Part shown: in pieces, positions 3,111 through 13,265 of the stretch
Numbering within the stretch: the stretch's first letter is position 1
Layout of the letters: every line of letters starts with the position of its first letter
DNA from: Candidatus Micrarchaeota archaeon
GTDB lineage: Archaea; Micrarchaeota; Micrarchaeia; Norongarragalinales; UBA8480
Direction: 5' to 3'
Assembly (NCBI GenBank): GCA_043805855.1
Contig: JAZDHP010000021.1
Location: forward strand, 1-21,074
DNA: 21,074 nt
The notes under the pieces: generated by a model
What the model was told of the DNA's origin: nothing
What the model saw: only the letters and a program-made list of their open reading frames with translations
Databases searched by the model: none
Position numbers and translations under genes: made by a program

Positions 3111-3146
3111 GTTTTTTCCATGGTAACTATAAATAAGGTGAAACAC

Positions 3147-3842
3147 ATGCGTTGGTTTTCTTTACTTTTTGCTTTTGTTTTCCTAGCTTCAACTTTAGTT
3201 GCAGCGGGTAACTATGGCGTAAGGTATTACGATAAAGGCGTGTATGGAGTTGGCTCGCCTCCAGCTTTTGACTACAGCGGAAGCCCAGCCGCAACAGCTG
3301 CTGCAAGCGCTGCTGCTAATGCTTTAATTGCATCTGGTGGCATAACTTGGACAAACACTACTGTGTTAACTACTAATGCGGCTAGTGTGGCTGCTTTGGA
3401 AAGTTCTTCAGGGTATTCTGCTAGTATTGCGTCATCTCAACGTATTGAATTTACAGTTGGTGAAGAAACTCACCATGTTGGGGTAATTAGTGTAAACGCG
3501 ACAATGGCTACTATTTTAATTCAAAGTACGCCGTTAAGTGTTACTCTTGCAATTGGCGAAAGCGCGCAGTTTGACTTGAACGACGACAGCACTGATGACC
3601 TCTATGTTAAGCTTTTGGGTATAAACAACTCAATTGCTAATTTAGTGATTAAGAAAATCAATCTAGAGGCAGCGGCGCCGGAAAGCGAAGAAGTTGAAAG
3701 CGACAACGCAACTGCAGGTACGGTTGGTGGAACTGAATCAACTGGCGAGAGCAAAGCAGATGAATTGCCATGGCTTCCAATAGTGGGAGTGATTGTAATT
3801 CTAGTTGTGCTTTACTTCGTGTTCGTTAAGTCAAAACGCTAA
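3147..3842 (+). CDS. Cell-surface protein with signal peptide and C-terminal membrane anchor
   Basis: AGGTGA SD before ATG 3147 (the ORF is open from 3120). Signal peptide, acidic linker, and C-terminal TM helix followed by KSKR. Confidence 0.75.
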   Translation: MRWFSLLFAFVFLASTLVAAGNYGVRYYDKGVYGVGSPPAFDYSGSPAATAAASAAANALIASGGITWTNTTVLTTNAASVAALESSSGYSASIASSQRIEFTVGEETHHVGVISVNATMATILIQSTPLSVTLAIGESAQFDLNDDSTDDLYVKLLGINNSIANLVIKKINLEAAAPESEEVESDNATAGTVGGTESTGESKADELPWLPIVGVIVILVVLYFVFVKSKR

Positions 3843-3856
3843 AAGGGAAACCAAAC

Positions 3857-3886
3857 TTTTCTTTTTTTTTCTTTTCTTCTTTTTTT
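3857..3886 (+). terminator. Oligo-T/pyrimidine tract, archaeal-type terminator
   Basis: About 30 nt of T/C immediately after the stop at 3842. Confidence 0.55.
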
Positions 3887-3910
3887 ATAATCCTTTACTT
3901 TTTAGCCGGT

Positions 3911-3949
3911 TTAGAACCATTTTTTCAATTGCGATTGATTTGAGTCTTC
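3911..3949 (-). repeat. Synonymously recoded duplicate of the fen1 3' end (EDSNQSQLKKWF*)
   Basis: GAA GAC TCA AAT CAA TCG CAA TTG AAA AAA TGG TTC TAA versus fen1 3992-4030 GAA GAT AGT AAT CAA TCA CAG TTA AAG AAA TGG TTC TAA. 31/39 nt identical, same peptide. Confidence 0.95.
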
Positions 3950-3982
3950 CAAAGGCCGCCACCGACGGCCTTTGAAACCTCT
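3950..3982. repeat. GC-rich hairpin element, also found in tRNA-Ser intron 1
   Basis: CAAAGGCCG-ccaccga-CGGCCTTTG (9-bp stem) followed by AAACCTCT. Confidence 0.8.
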
Positions 3983-3991
3983 AGAACCGAA

Positions 3992-5023
3992 TTAGAACCA
4001 TTTCTTTAACTGTGATTGATTACTATCTTCAGGGTCCTTGAACGCTCTTTTGAGTGAAGATTCTACTCTTTCTTTTGAAAACTCGTGTTCTTCTACCATT
4101 AGTTTGAAAATCTCTTCGCGCTGTGGTGGCTCGCGTTGTTTTAAAGTATCTTTGTCGACTTCGACGACGTTTGGGTGCATGAACAAGTCGTAAACTTCTT
4201 TCCATTGCATTTCTTTTCCAATTTCTTGCAAGATGCTGTCAAAATTAGTGTGCTGTGTATCCTGCGCTAACTTCAATGCTTTTTTTGGCCCGATGCCGTA
4301 AATGCCTTCGTTGAAGTCAGTGCCGTTAAGGAGGCCAATCCAGATGAGTTTTTCGCGTGTTATGTTTAATTTTTGCAAGCTTTCCTCGAGGTTAATTTCT
4401 TCTGGTTTTACTTCCATTGTCATATTTCTGCGGGGTATTTTCTTTTTTCCTGCAATTGTCAAATTGCGTACTAGTATAGGCGTGCCGAACAATAGTGTGT
4501 CGTAATCCTGCGACGCAGCTGCGTCTACAATTCCTTGCTGCGCCATTGCTGCGCATTGTGCTTCTCCTTCTCCTGGAGCTTGTACCCAGGGCACGCCCAT
4601 GATTGTTAGTAATTGTTTGCTCTGTTCTATTTCTACGCTTCCGAGCTTTGCTGTTCGTTGCGCTAGTGCCCCCGCTCGTTCAATATCGCCTTCTTTAATC
4701 GCCTCTAGGCGTTGCAATTCAGCGTGTTTTTTCACGGCTGCGCGTTCTTCTAGTGTTCTTTTTTTTAAGTCGCTTGGTTTGCCGTCAAAAACGTAAACTG
4801 GTTTTATTCCTTTTTCCATTAAACTACAAGTGCGGTAGAACAAACCACTCAAGTGGCTTGTTATTCTCCCATGTGAGTCCATTAATGGTGTGCCGTCTGG
4901 CTGGCGGATAATTGTAATAAATTGATAAAGTGTGTTAAACGCGTCTATTGCTAGGCGTTTGCCAGCTAGTGCTTCGAGTGTAGTTTCTCGTTTTTGCAAA
5001 ATGCTTCCAATGTCAACGCCCAT
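3992..5023 (-). CDS. fen: Flap endonuclease 1
   Basis: MGVDIG, AIDAFNTLYQF..IRQPDGTPLMD, YVFDG, EGEAQ, SQDYD, GTDFN, GIGPKKAL; C-terminal PIP box QSQLKKWF. Confidence 0.98.
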   Translation of the reverse strand: MGVDIGSILQKRETTLEALAGKRLAIDAFNTLYQFITIIRQPDGTPLMDSHGRITSHLSGLFYRTCSLMEKGIKPVYVFDGKPSDLKKRTLEERAAVKKHAELQRLEAIKEGDIERAGALAQRTAKLGSVEIEQSKQLLTIMGVPWVQAPGEGEAQCAAMAQQGIVDAAASQDYDTLLFGTPILVRNLTIAGKKKIPRRNMTMEVKPEEINLEESLQKLNITREKLIWIGLLNGTDFNEGIYGIGPKKALKLAQDTQHTNFDSILQEIGKEMQWKEVYDLFMHPNVVEVDKDTLKQREPPQREEIFKLMVEEHEFSKERVESSLKRAFKDPEDSNQSQLKKWF

Positions 5024-5848: not shown

Positions 5849-7152
5849 AAGCAATTGAACTACTTGCCTTGCTTGGCTTTATTATTATTTTCTTCTACGC
5901 TGCGCTTTCAACGCTCCCTAATATTTTTAAAATTGTTCTAGTTGCAGCTACGCTTTTTGGAAGCGGCGCTATAATTGCGCGTCTTACAAAAACTGCAAAT
6001 TACTATGGTATGGTTATCCTAAAGGGAAAATACGGCTTAAAGGAAATGAAAATATGGTCGCAGAAATACGCTAAGGCTTTGCAAGGGTTTGTTGATTTGT
6101 GGCTTTCCCTCGGGTTTGGAGTATTTTATTCTTACTTTTTGTTTGGCAAGGATTTGAAAAAATTTGCTGTTCACTTGCTAATTTTGTTAGTTTTGTTCTT
6201 TGGGCTTAGCTTTACTTCAGTTGGGGTTGACAATTTATTCTTAATGCAACTTGCCGGCGTTTTTTTTGGACTAGCCGGAGCAGGAGTTATATCAATTGCG
6301 CTAAACGCGTTTGCAATATTTACAATTCCTAATACGCCTGCGGGAGTTATGCCCGTTGTGCCTGGTGTTACTGTGCCATTTGAAGCGATTTTTGCTTTAA
6401 TTTTCGTCGCAGTTGTCCACGAAGCGTCGCATGGTATTTTCTTCTTTGCAGAAAAGTTAAAAGTGAAAAACTCCGGGGTTGCATTGCTTGGGTTTATTCC
6501 AATTGGTGCGTTTGTAGAATCAGACGATAAGAGTTTCGAAAAGCACAACTTGCCAGGAAAACGCCGTATACTAGCGGCAGGCAGCGCGTCTAACTTTTAT
6601 TCAATGTTATTATTTTTACCGTTGTTAATAGCTTCATTTTCACTAGTTGGTACAGTTACCGCTGGAGTTTCAATTGCACAAATCACTGCGGGTTCTCCTG
6701 TAGATGGCGTGCTTTCCAACGGTGATGTAGTAATTGCGGTTAACGGCACTGCTACCAAAACCTTAACTCCGTTTGTGCAAACGCTTTCCGCCGCTAAGCC
6801 TGGAGAAATGGTTTCGCTTTCGCTGCTAAGTGGCAAAACGGTCAACGTTGTTTTAGACAGCAAAGGTAAGCTCGGCGTGCAAGTTGCTAATTATGTTGCG
6901 CCTGAAAATTCTTTTGTTTATAGTGTCTACTCGTTAATTGCTGAAATTTTAAAATGGGCAGTACTGTTCAGCTTGGGCTTAGCGGTTACTAATTTAATTC
7001 CGTTGTTTATCACTGACGGCCACCAGATTTTGCGCGGTGAGTTAAACGCTTTGTTCAAACATGACTTGCGCCTTGCAGGGCTGTTAACGAACGTAATTGG
7101 CGGGGTAATGCTTGCGCTGATACTTTTCAATTTATTGCCATTTCTAAAATAA
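5845..7152 (+). CDS. Site-2 protease (M50) with PDZ domain
   Basis: HEASH, IPIGAFVE, AAGSASN, a PDZ-like segment and NLIPLFITDG. ATGA overlap with mbf1. Confidence 0.93.
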   Translation: MKAIELLALLGFIIIFFYAALSTLPNIFKIVLVAATLFGSGAIIARLTKTANYYGMVILKGKYGLKEMKIWSQKYAKALQGFVDLWLSLGFGVFYSYFLFGKDLKKFAVHLLILLVLFFGLSFTSVGVDNLFLMQLAGVFFGLAGAGVISIALNAFAIFTIPNTPAGVMPVVPGVTVPFEAIFALIFVAVVHEASHGIFFFAEKLKVKNSGVALLGFIPIGAFVESDDKSFEKHNLPGKRRILAAGSASNFYSMLLFLPLLIASFSLVGTVTAGVSIAQITAGSPVDGVLSNGDVVIAVNGTATKTLTPFVQTLSAAKPGEMVSLSLLSGKTVNVVLDSKGKLGVQVANYVAPENSFVYSVYSLIAEILKWAVLFSLGLAVTNLIPLFITDGHQILRGELNALFKHDLRLAGLLTNVIGGVMLALILFNLLPFLK

Positions 7153-11018: not shown

Positions 11019-12755
11019 TCACCCTATTCTTATTGCATAAGACGCGCTTCCTTTACTGGTAACAGCTGCGCGTTGTGCTGTGTAAGCAGTTGCAGCTACG
11101 TACATTGCCTTGTAGCCAGTTTGTGAAGTTGTTGGTATTGTTAATCTTGAAGTAGTTGTTGTAGTTTGGCTTTGGTAATTTTTGTATGCTGTTGTAGTTT
11201 GCGTGTAAATTCCGGCTGTTGCGCTGTACTGCTGTGGTTTTGAAGCGATTAAAGTTTGCGTTTTTTGACTGGTATATCCAATTAAACTTCCGCTTGGATT
11301 AACCGCAATTACGTTTGGCGGAACTTTTGTTGCTGGAATTGGATAAATGAGCGCCACGTTTTTTGGACTTGCTATTAAGTTTGCAGGGTAACCTTCGTAG
11401 GTTATTTGCTTTGCAGGTGTGTCATATGAAACGGTAAATGTACTTACTGGCGGTTGCACTATTTGTGCAATTCGTATGACTAGCCCAGCAAGCGCAATTT
11501 TAACCGCTCCGCCTGTAGTTGTAGAGCTTTGTTTAATGCTGCCGTCACGCAATGCAGCTAGTAAAACTGGCACAGAATAGCCTGAATTTTTAATGCGGTC
11601 AAAAGTACTTGATGTTGTTGTCAACGTAATGCTTGGGTTAGTGTAGCCGTCTTTTTTAACTTCTTTAAGTGCTCCGTTTGTAACTAGTAAACCGTACTTA
11701 ACTTCCTTGTCTTCTGCAGCTATAGCTACATTAACTTGTTCACTTCCAATCAAAAAGCCAACTACAGGCGGGACATTAGTTCCGTCGCGTATTAAAGTGG
11801 CTGTTTTGTTTTCGATTTCCCTACCAATTGAAACGTCTTTTGGAGTTGTGTTGAAAACTTTTGCAAATGGATCTGTTGTCAACGGAACGTACCTAGTAAC
11901 GTCGATGCTTGGTATTAGTTTGAAATTTTCACAAGTGCAACCGCAGCAAGTTCGTAGAATCTTTGTATCTGGATGATTAGCGTAGGGTATTTCTTCAGTT
12001 GTGCAGTTAGTTATCTTGCATTTCTTTTCCTTCCAAATTTGCCACCATGGAATTTTCTCTTCTCCCTCGCAGTACATTTTCATCCCGTAGTAATAGCCGC
12101 CTTCTTTGGTTGGCTCGCCGTTTATAACTCTATCAATAGCTTGTTCTTTTGTCTTGCCGTTGTTACTTCCAGGGTCGTTGCTGCGTCCATCTCCATTTGG
12201 ATCAGTAAAGTAATGATCTTCGCATCGGTTGTTTGGTTTGTATTCAATGCAAGGCCATGCGCCACATGAAAAACTACACGCTATTTCTAAACTTTCATCT
12301 TCAGTGCCAAACTTTGTCCCAGTTGTTTTGTTTGTTTTACCATAAAGAACAGTTTCGCTGTGAATTGCCTCTTGTAAAACTAATTTGCCTTCTCGGTCAA
12401 CAATTAAATCGTGCGGAGGGCAGTCCCACTTTCCAACAATAGCATCTTCAACATTTACGACAATGGACGGGTTTCGTGGTGTGAAACTCTTTGCGGAAAT
12501 TGTACGCATGACCCACCAACCGCCTGGGTTTAAGTTCAAACGCTCGGCGTAATCTGCACAGCTTTTAATTGCGTTGTCCTGTGCTTTCTTACAATAGTCC
12601 TGCGCTTTTTGCGGCCAATTGGCAATGTTTACAGTTCCCTTGTCAATAAAATCTTTTCCAGTGTCCTGCGCTCCGCTTGCGCCAAAAACATCAAAAGCAA
12701 AAACAGGAGTAACTAAAAGCATCAGTGCAATTATTGGAATTAGTAAACGTTTCAT
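11019..12755 (-). CDS. Secreted Cys-rich multidomain protein with an SCP2-like middle segment and Thr-rich tail
   Basis: Signal peptide MKRLL..VFA; 14 Cys in the N-terminal half; AGGTAGGG SD upstream. Confidence 0.8.
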   Translation of the reverse strand: MKRLLIPIIALMLLVTPVFAFDVFGASGAQDTGKDFIDKGTVNIANWPQKAQDYCKKAQDNAIKSCADYAERLNLNPGGWWVMRTISAKSFTPRNPSIVVNVEDAIVGKWDCPPHDLIVDREGKLVLQEAIHSETVLYGKTNKTTGTKFGTEDESLEIACSFSCGAWPCIEYKPNNRCEDHYFTDPNGDGRSNDPGSNNGKTKEQAIDRVINGEPTKEGGYYYGMKMYCEGEEKIPWWQIWKEKKCKITNCTTEEIPYANHPDTKILRTCCGCTCENFKLIPSIDVTRYVPLTTDPFAKVFNTTPKDVSIGREIENKTATLIRDGTNVPPVVGFLIGSEQVNVAIAAEDKEVKYGLLVTNGALKEVKKDGYTNPSITLTTTSSTFDRIKNSGYSVPVLLAALRDGSIKQSSTTTGGAVKIALAGLVIRIAQIVQPPVSTFTVSYDTPAKQITYEGYPANLIASPKNVALIYPIPATKVPPNVIAVNPSGSLIGYTSQKTQTLIASKPQQYSATAGIYTQTTTAYKNYQSQTTTTTSRLTIPTTSQTGYKAMYVAATAYTAQRAAVTSKGSASYAIRIG

Positions 12756-13020
12756 TTTTTCCCTACCTCTACAAAAGACAAAACATCAATGGTTTAAAAT
12801 AGTTGCGATAAGAAAAAAGAAAAAACAGTATTAACTAAAAGAATCATTTAAATTATTGTAATTAGTAAACTTTTATTTTTTTCCCTACCTATACAAAACA
12901 AAAAACAGGATTAAAAAAAAGAATCTGTTAATTTATTGTATTTATTAAACTTTTATTTTTTTCCCTACAAAAACAAACCAAAAAACAACATTGTTTTAAA
13001 ATTGTTGCGATAAAAAAAAA
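12693..13020. repeat. Degenerate ungapped triplication of the upstream gene's 5' end (probable assembly artefact)
   Basis: Copy A 12693-12818, copy B 12815-12898, copy C 12895-13020 (offset 202 from A). B versus A shows 12/84 mismatches, 11 of them C>A or G>T. Confidence 0.85.
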
Positions 13021-13028
13021 TAAAAAAA

Positions 13029-13265
13029 CGCCGAGGACGAGATTTTCGAGTTCTCCCGGGTTTTCTTTTCCGTGAGGCTTTTCTTTTCTCAAAAGAAAAG
13101 GTTCGTCGAACTCGCAATCCCTTGCGGGAACTAGCTTACAAATAGGGAAACGCTTCGTGTTTCGGTCTCCCTAACTCAAGGCTAGCGCATTGCCATTGCA
13201 GAAGGCTTCTTGGCCAGAGGTCTAAAAGGCCTGCGGCCTGAGCGGCCTTTTTCTGCCACCTCGGC
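13029..13265 (-). tRNA. tRNA-Ser(UGA) with three introns (13196-13250 at 15/16; 13137-13174 at 37/38; 13043-13104 at 59/60)
   Basis: Removing the introns gives an 82-nt cloverleaf: GCCGAGG TG GCAGAATGGCAATGC G CTAGC CTTGAGA GCTAG TTCCCGCAAGGGATT GCGAG TTCGACT CTCGT CCTCGGC G. Long variable arm, G73, no encoded CCA, located downstream of tuf-rps10. Confidence 0.92.

Follow-up and report, generated by a model that had tools for sequence, protein, structure and literature searches.

A doubled, silently recoded fen1 tail brackets a small hairpin repeat element in a Micrarchaeota genome

The fen1 gene of a Candidatus Micrarchaeota archaeon ends in a doubled tail that surrounds a short hairpin element. 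The locus lies within a stretch of 21,074 nucleotides (contig JAZDHP010000021.1 of assembly GCA_043805855.1), the whole of which is called the window here. An open reading frame (ORF) on the minus strand (5023..3992) encodes the 343-amino-acid archaeal flap endonuclease 1 (FEN1), and the last 39 nucleotides of this gene (T1, 3992..4030, minus strand) encode EDSNQSQLKKWF and a TAA stop codon. Beyond an intervening segment of 42 nucleotides (E, 3950..3991, minus strand), the same residues and stop codon are encoded a second time (T2, 3911..3949, minus strand). E proves to be a complete copy of a small, gene-less, multi-copy hairpin repeat element of this Micrarchaeota genus. T2 is best viewed as a displaced spare tail that is no longer translated and is unlikely to work as a second peptide.

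The product of the gene passes the NCBIfam equivalog model for archaeal FEN1 (TIGR03674 fen_arch, 427.7 bits against a cut-off of 351.95), carries the Pfam domains XPG_N (75.7 bits) and XPG_I (98.5 bits), and aligns end to end with its best solved relative, Pyrococcus FEN-1 (1b43, E 9.7e-102). PCNA-interacting boxes follow the consensus Qxx[LIM]xx[FWY][FWY]. The extreme C-terminus of FEN1, QSQLKKWF, conforms to this consensus and pairs with the C-terminal QSTLESWF of 1b43, and the motif is retained in the tails of 30 fen1 loci from other genomes. Judging from these similarities, T1 is predicted to be the working PCNA-binding tail of FEN1. For the enzyme itself nothing would change, since it is predicted to carry this single ordinary tail.

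Translation and comparison confirmed the duplication as set out in an earlier, preliminary description of this DNA. The starts of T1 and T2 are 81 nucleotides apart, and the two copies differ at 8 of 39 nucleotides (offsets 5, 6, 7, 8, 17, 20, 23 and 26), leaving 31 identical positions. All of the differences are synonymous, including a complete exchange of serine codons (AGT versus TCA). A local alignment of the sequences flanking E scores 24, compared with shuffle maxima of 15 (n=100) and 17 (n=60), and the direct repeat spans 39 nucleotides, or 44 if the five nucleotides past the stop codon are counted. When the whole 1.03-Mb genome was searched with up to nine substitutions permitted, T1 and T2 were the sole places matching either tail. 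The segment between them reads FGSRGFKGRRWRPL in frame and is free of stop codons. This in-frame spacing carries no weight, as it has a one-in-three chance of arising and 14 open codons are ordinary.

The hairpin that had been noticed between the two tails is also real. Its stem-loop occupies 3947..3977 (minus strand), with arms of 12 nucleotides each (3947-3958 and 3966-3977) that a repeat search finds to be 92% complementary. A 131-nucleotide segment folded with RNAfold forms 14 pairs at -35.8 kcal/mol (z = -3.0), and none of 200 shuffled sequences folds as well. Similar GC-rich stem-loops were found by a search for paired arms on many contigs of the source genome (G000). Eleven copies in this genome, the fen1 spacer and ten others, align over about 47 columns, and the fen1 spacer does so end to end. 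The element measures about 45 nucleotides and consists of a 5′ box (GGTTGC(A/C)G(A/T)GG or GGCCGAGG; GGTTCTAGAGG in the fen1 copy), a few bases and a stem-loop of 7-14 base pairs whose stem is closed by AAGGCC...GGCCTT. Three of the eight predicted stem pairs show compensatory changes in the 11-copy alignment.

A covariance model (R1) was built from this alignment with the fen1 copy included, so that its match to the spacer (3948-3994, minus strand, E 6.8e-13) is strong by construction. Membership of the spacer in the family is accepted because of the alignment with the ten other copies and the matches to the pattern across the genome, not because of the R1 score. At E<1e-5, R1 finds 14 places in G000, comprising the 11 seeds and three new copies (C29:47763, C2:12047 and C17:8626). 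In the other three genomes of the genus (G001, G002 and G003) it finds 18, 4 and 1 places at E<=0.1, and at the same threshold the eight other genomes of the family yield a single weak match in each of three genomes (E 2e-4 to 0.09). Across 68 genomes of the order, seven have matches at E<=1e-4. These are all four members of the genus, G020 (five places), and G013 and G051 (one place each).

No fitting RNA family was recognized. Rfam returned no match in the window at gathering thresholds, and for 15 element loci examined at E<=1 it returned only three weak matches, all lying off the elements. A limited literature search on hairpin or mobile repeats in Micrarchaeota uncovered no such element by title or abstract, and an equally limited search on long target site duplication in archaea yielded nothing relevant. 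Going by these searches, the pattern of gene-end duplication around hairpin elements is unpublished. A more degenerate version of the element pattern, run across contigs, gave at least 121 stretches, but those matches that were listed came almost entirely from unrelated bacteria, and this pattern was too loose to be used. We also considered whether the 5′ box might have been copied from fen1, given that the word GGTTCTA is shared by the box and the ends of both tails. An element copy in the sequencing run X1 that is identical at 35 of 38 nucleotides sits in unrelated flanks, and the idea was therefore rejected.

Some members of the family have more elaborate forms. In at least four copies (C12:13580-13656, C2:12100-12199, C29 at ~47560-47620 and C45 at ~6730-6810), a palindromic module of about 55 nucleotides splits the 5′ box from the stem, and a copy on C4 (~1190-1265) is probably a fifth example in G000. 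The module is laid out as ATGAGCACAA, a hairpin, TTGTGACTCAGTCACAA, a hairpin and TTGTGCTGA. At G000:C2:12040-12260, repeats of the short flank GCNGGTGAAGT enclose three tandem elements, whereas at what is apparently the same locus in G001 (C152:2109-2154) they enclose one. The array grew in one lineage. Two further loci, L281 (G013:C45) and L282 (G051:C60), are identical over about 280 nucleotides around the element even though the genomes belong to different families, which may reflect recent transfer, a shared contaminant contig or one contig binned twice.

Sites that lack the element can be recognized at fen1. We compared 30 fen1 loci from other genomes, 29 of which include downstream sequence, and found no second tail within 200 nucleotides downstream of the gene in any of these 29. 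A second tail is likewise missing from the five metagenome loci inspected (L077-L081, the best 5 of 80 loci); the closest metagenome relatives have FEN1 proteins that are 80% and 79% identical, and no strain-level contig is among them. In the window, T2 is followed by a native A/T-rich spacer (3843..3910) and by a converging ORF on the plus strand (3120..3842). The latter encodes 240 amino acids with a hydrophobic C-terminal stretch, as read from the translation, and has no Pfam or NCBIfam match. Two loci from the same genus, L003 and L004, run from the WF-TAA of their single tail straight into TAAAC and an A-rich stretch, followed by the same converging membrane-protein gene. It is T2, and not T1, that precedes TAAAC and the A-rich stretch in the window.

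A closer comparison comes from the X1 data. Four sequencing runs were listed, with shares of the stretch's words of 0.17, 0.05, 0.00 and 0.00, and X2 to X4 gave short pieces or nothing on this stretch. An X1 contig of 1815 nucleotides aligns to window positions 3501-3841 with 18 differences in 341 nucleotides and to 4025-4600 with 52 differences in 576 nucleotides (~91% identity). Between these aligned parts lie 105 nucleotides in X1 versus 183 in the window, a difference of 78 nucleotides, and by our own arithmetic the stop codons of the converging genes are ~71 nucleotides apart in X1 and 149 in the window. Because 105 nucleotides leave no room for a tail, an element and another tail, this near strain lacks the 81-nucleotide unit. 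Its FEN1 (P0002) has 343 amino acids, is 98% identical and ends in the single tail EDSNQAQLKKWF. The alignment runs through the body of fen1 and halts six nucleotides into T1. An orthologous tail at ~9% divergence should have aligned, and this halt would fit a T1 that came in together with the element. Synteny and the place where the alignment halts are the reasons to regard T2 as the resident allele.

The same anatomy recurs at unrelated genes. For 34 element copies we compared the 200 nucleotides upstream with the 200 nucleotides downstream and scored them against shuffled flanks, which revealed a significant flanking direct repeat in five copies: fen1, G000:C42, G001:C139a, G001:C139b and G001:C3a. 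A sixth flag (G020:C12a) was dismissed because one element was matching another. Different copies have repeats of 18, 41-44 and 78 nucleotides, with an overall range of 10-78 nucleotides. A protein-level scan of 33 element instances produced only the four loci already known.

The clearest of these cases is C42, where the element is bracketed by a 78-nucleotide repeat with one mismatch and one indel (~76/78 identical). The repeat takes in 14 nucleotides upstream of an ATG together with the opening 21 codons of a gene for a 122-amino-acid protein. This gene lies on the strand opposite to the element, so that here the spare copy is a gene start. Its orthologues in G002 and G003 are single-copy and have no element; they represent the empty site, and therefore C42 is an insertion with a 78-nucleotide target duplication. 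The upstream copy and the element together form a 45-codon read-through frame (L032 1161-1298) whose TGA overlaps the real ATG (ATGA), an arrangement that could allow translational coupling between the old start and the intact gene.

At G001:C139, the gene for an 83-amino-acid membrane protein ends with GYTLPQVFSSPQ and a stop codon, after which come an element, GYTLPQVFSSSP with a stop codon, a second element, and GYTLPQVFSAS with a stop codon. The tail beginning GYTLPQVF is thus present three times around two elements, and n elements are accompanied by n+1 tails, as they are at fen1. The spare tails at this locus carry residue changes, and by our own count the next tail copy begins 38 nucleotides after the stop codon and is out of frame.

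Free drift of T2 would be expected to change residues, as just 14-26% of the single substitutions possible in these tails are silent. Of the 11 codons capable of synonymous change, six differ between the two copies, with no amino-acid change at all. We simulated neutral decay by leaving the second copy unconstrained and introducing eight differences, generating 3000 pairs for each of three transition/transversion weights. In none of the 3000 pairs at any weight were the peptide and stop codon retained. Therefore, T2 was shaped as coding sequence, and the argument of the preliminary description that the two tails represent neither a sequencing error nor a fresh, decaying duplicate is upheld. 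Its further conclusion, that the copies diverged under coding constraint, holds for their history but not necessarily for their present positions. Many relatives have an identical QSQLKKWF tail, and L077, whose FEN1 is 80% identical, encodes the same 12 residues with seven silent differences from T1 and seven from T2 (our own count). For these reasons constraint on T2 in its present place is not required and need not have acted there. As far as their sequences can tell, two alleles of a working fen1 gene would look exactly like T1 and T2.

Divergence from X1 is also unequal on the two sides of E. In the fen1 part there are 52 nucleotide differences and four residue changes in 192 codons, with ~46 of the differences silent. 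In the gene downstream of T2, 6 of 113 codons are silently changed and 8 are non-silently changed. The fen1 side shows about three times the silent divergence of the downstream side (Fisher p ~2e-4, from rough site counts). A possible extension of the repeat upstream of the tails (KRAFKD versus SRGFKG) was dropped as marginal; the test for upstream homology gave P=0.025 with the locus's own element and 0.006 with the C29 copy, and P=0.42 and 0.79 at two other loci.

The account to which we lean, with moderate confidence, regards T1 and T2 as natural alleles of one conserved tail, joined by recombination around the hairpin element, leaving T2 as a displaced relic. According to this proposal, the element would land at gene boundaries and create a long target duplication of variable length, such that one complete gene end or gene start remains intact. 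At fen1 it lies directly behind the stop codon, and T2 would have been pushed away from the gene and left untranslated while still joined to its native downstream DNA. T1 and T2 would each have been shaped inside a working fen1 gene. An element-bearing allele from a diverged lineage, consisting of the fen1 body, T1 and E, would then have recombined with a resident allele that contributed T2 and the downstream DNA. The repeated tail could itself have supplied the homology, with a donor of the form tail-element-tail pairing its second tail with the only tail of the recipient. T1 would be the incoming and T2 the resident tail, and the element would be selfish DNA rather than an RNA module of the host.

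More tentatively, it is conceivable that ultra-small archaea host hitherto undescribed, gene-less hairpin cassettes of 40-120 nucleotides that arrive with, or create, a spare gene terminus and spread by host recombination at that terminus. The trace of such spread would be a silently recoded, displaced tail, and fen1 would be one clean and population-polymorphic example.

Several observations weigh against the account of two joined alleles. The join of T1, E and T2 on one molecule is documented by a single contig, and the X1 tail was not reported as aligning with T2 either. Furthermore, fen1 is the only silently recoded case, with the other flank repeats being near-identical or non-silently changed. 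The unequal silent divergence uses rough site counts and few downstream changes, and rates can differ between genes. No candidate for moving the element is apparent, as G000, which is 92% complete, contains no match for a Y1 transposase, reverse transcriptase, TnpB or Cas1. The Y1 search (PF01797) was positive in 6 of 14 known genomes when run as a control, and the reverse transcriptase search used RVT_1. Copies of the element also occupy the same site in different species (G000:C19 and G002:C16; C47 and G001:C36), and three copies are located immediately 5′ of tRNA genes. Because of these last two observations, the element could instead be a working RNA or DNA module of the host. The three copies next to tRNA genes had also prompted the idea of a portable promoter for leaderless RNAs, which we set aside; copies also lie inverted inside a putative tRNA gene and antisense to a gene start.

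Among the other explanations, a strain-chimeric assembly deserves the most attention, although we judge it unlikely. Two strains might each carry the element with an identical pair of tails, and the assembler might have crossed over between them in the shared stretch formed by the element, the 12 nucleotides before it and the five after it (~59 identical nucleotides by our own count). Such an event would yield the tail of one strain, the element and the tail of the other, with purely allelic silent differences, just as natural recombination would. Both the unequal silent divergence from X1 and the dependence of the join on one contig are in keeping with this possibility. However, a blastn search with 3 kb of the locus against all 67 contigs of the bin finds only the locus itself and no second copy, and X1, the only near strain seen, has no element here. 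Moreover, the anatomy of element and duplication recurs on another contig and in another assembly. Simple drift in place, by which the element inserted with a 39-nucleotide target duplication and the copies then diverged with T2 unconstrained, is almost certainly wrong. A fresh duplication of this kind does exist at C42 in the same genome, but the neutral-decay simulations reject drift at fen1 at approximately P<0.001 and most single changes in the tails would not be silent.

The preliminary description offered two models, and neither fares well as a whole. One of them regards the locus as the scar of a larger integrative element that brought a replacement tail with it and from which the interior was subsequently deleted. 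The two tyrosine recombinases of the genome, the only ones found, might be seen in this light, and so might the resemblance to the icd locus discussed below. The parts of this model that survive are an element at the 3′ end of fen1 and a replacement tail. An interior deletion does not, as the 42 nucleotides align end to end with a ~45-nucleotide repeat found at many places and leave no room for remnants. Among the 24 window ORFs scanned against Pfam there is no integrase, transposase or viral (phage) gene. The individual loci duplicate their own flanks at different lengths, unlike the products of a site-specific integrase with one attachment site, and this variable length argues equally against a transposase with a fixed stagger. 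We consider a lost larger element quite improbable. Slightly less probable still is the other model, in which T2 is translated and kept by selection, either as a free 13-amino-acid PCNA-interacting peptide (MEDSNQSQLKKWF) initiated at the TTG at 3952 or as a second PCNA-interacting box reached by read-through. The open, in-frame spacer and the purely silent changes at six of 11 eligible codons would be expected from such selection. Yet conservation is lacking, with no second copy in the 29 other-genome loci, the five metagenome loci or X1. The 120 FEN1 relatives listed measure 259-378 amino acids, and no extended form appeared in the length range searched. Unrelated genes share this anatomy with spare copies that cannot serve as useful peptides: at G001:C139 the spare tails are changed in residues and out of frame, and at C42 the duplicate is a gene start lying on the strand opposite to the element.

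Two better-known classes of mobile DNA were examined and rejected. The mismatches between T1 and T2 are not adenine-specific, occurring as T/C, G/A and A/G in both directions, and the genome has no RVT_1 match, which together speak against a diversity-generating retroelement. A miniature inverted-repeat transposable element would leave a short target duplication of fixed length, which the repeats of 18, 41-44 and 78 nucleotides do not provide, and the only inverted repeat in the element is its central stem.

The nearest precedent for a displaced, silently different tail is the icd/e14/icdC arrangement of Escherichia coli K-12, reportedly going back to Hill, Gray and Brody in 1989. In that system icd has a functional tail, the original one lies beyond the e14 insert as icdC, the differences between the two are mostly silent, and excision recombines them (PMC13626634). 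In the same manner, fen1 keeps a replacement tail with silent differences and T2 lies displaced downstream on the syntenic flank. However, e14 is a prophage of ~15 kb with an integrase, whereas the fen1 insert is gene-less and has 42 nucleotides (81 with a tail); only the hairpin repeat is present between the tails, and the other copies of the element carry duplications of quite different flanks.

Insertions with long target duplications provide a second point of comparison. Furuta and colleagues, who cite Nobusato et al. 2000 as reference 37, describe direct target repeats of more than 30 bp, an empty site with a single copy and no transposase; one 46-bp repeat overlaps the 3′ end of a gene, no archaeal case survived the screen, and the mechanism is left open (Furuta 2010, PMC2853133). 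Repeats of this size are present at fen1 (39 or 44 nucleotides) and at C42 (78 nucleotides), as are empty sites at fen1 (X1, L003 and L004) and at C42 (G002 and G003). C42 also has near-identical repeats and fits this class fully, whereas the fen1 repeats are only 31/39 (79%) identical. The inserts described in that paper are bacterial restriction-modification units of several kb, unlike the 45-nucleotide archaeal hairpin repeat reported here.

In form, the element resembles other tiny repeats. The REP, BIME and REPIN families consist of short, imperfectly palindromic, GC-rich repeats that are present in many copies immediately outside genes, frequently directly behind stop codons, and are moved by the Y1 transposase RAYT. 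To our knowledge, REP insertion gives no long target duplication, and G000 differs from REP hosts in lacking a Y1 match. In fungal mitochondria, mobile GC clusters and double-hairpin elements are likewise tiny, gene-less, GC-rich hairpins that spread in AT-rich, compact genomes. Long gene-end duplications are not known as a hallmark of these elements, and the fen1 element differs from them in host and sequence.

In place of the hidden peptide or prophage scar first considered, the locus is thus interpreted as a tiny hairpin repeat accompanied by a duplicated gene end and two alleles of one tail. If this is true, selfish repeats can still colonize a genome of 1 Mb that has hardly any non-coding DNA, by landing on a gene boundary where the duplicated gene end preserves the gene. 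It would provide a simple account of silently recoded, duplicated tails, which might otherwise be taken for hidden micropeptides, programmed recoding or the scars of prophages. Loci with the order tail, element and tail might also serve as naturally occurring markers of inter-lineage recombination in uncultured archaea.

The remainder of the window holds some minor features. The neighbourhood is of a housekeeping character, with genes for SAM synthetase, NAC, archease, EF-1 alpha, Lon and a class I tRNA synthetase. Within a gene-free segment (13030-13260), which we take to be fragments of a multi-intron tRNA gene, there is a weaker element copy (13206-13253, plus strand, R1 E 1.8e-4, box GGCCAGAGGT). 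ARAGORN reports no tRNA in the window, and neither it nor Rfam reports one in this segment; in the whole of G000, ARAGORN finds eight tRNA genes, five of them with introns. Elsewhere, an inverted element copy is present at the same place in two species (L050, G003:C4, and L056, G002:C36) with tRNA-like halves on either side, and from this arrangement it may sit in a tRNA intron.

A separate set of repeats is located at 12692-12970, where the start of a 578-amino-acid gene (11019..12755, minus strand) is followed by two degenerate upstream copies of 80-93 nucleotides that are ~85% identical. The repeated part reads as the first codons and the upstream leader, and there is no GC hairpin between the copies. 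These repeats may represent another gene-terminus duplication, of a different kind.

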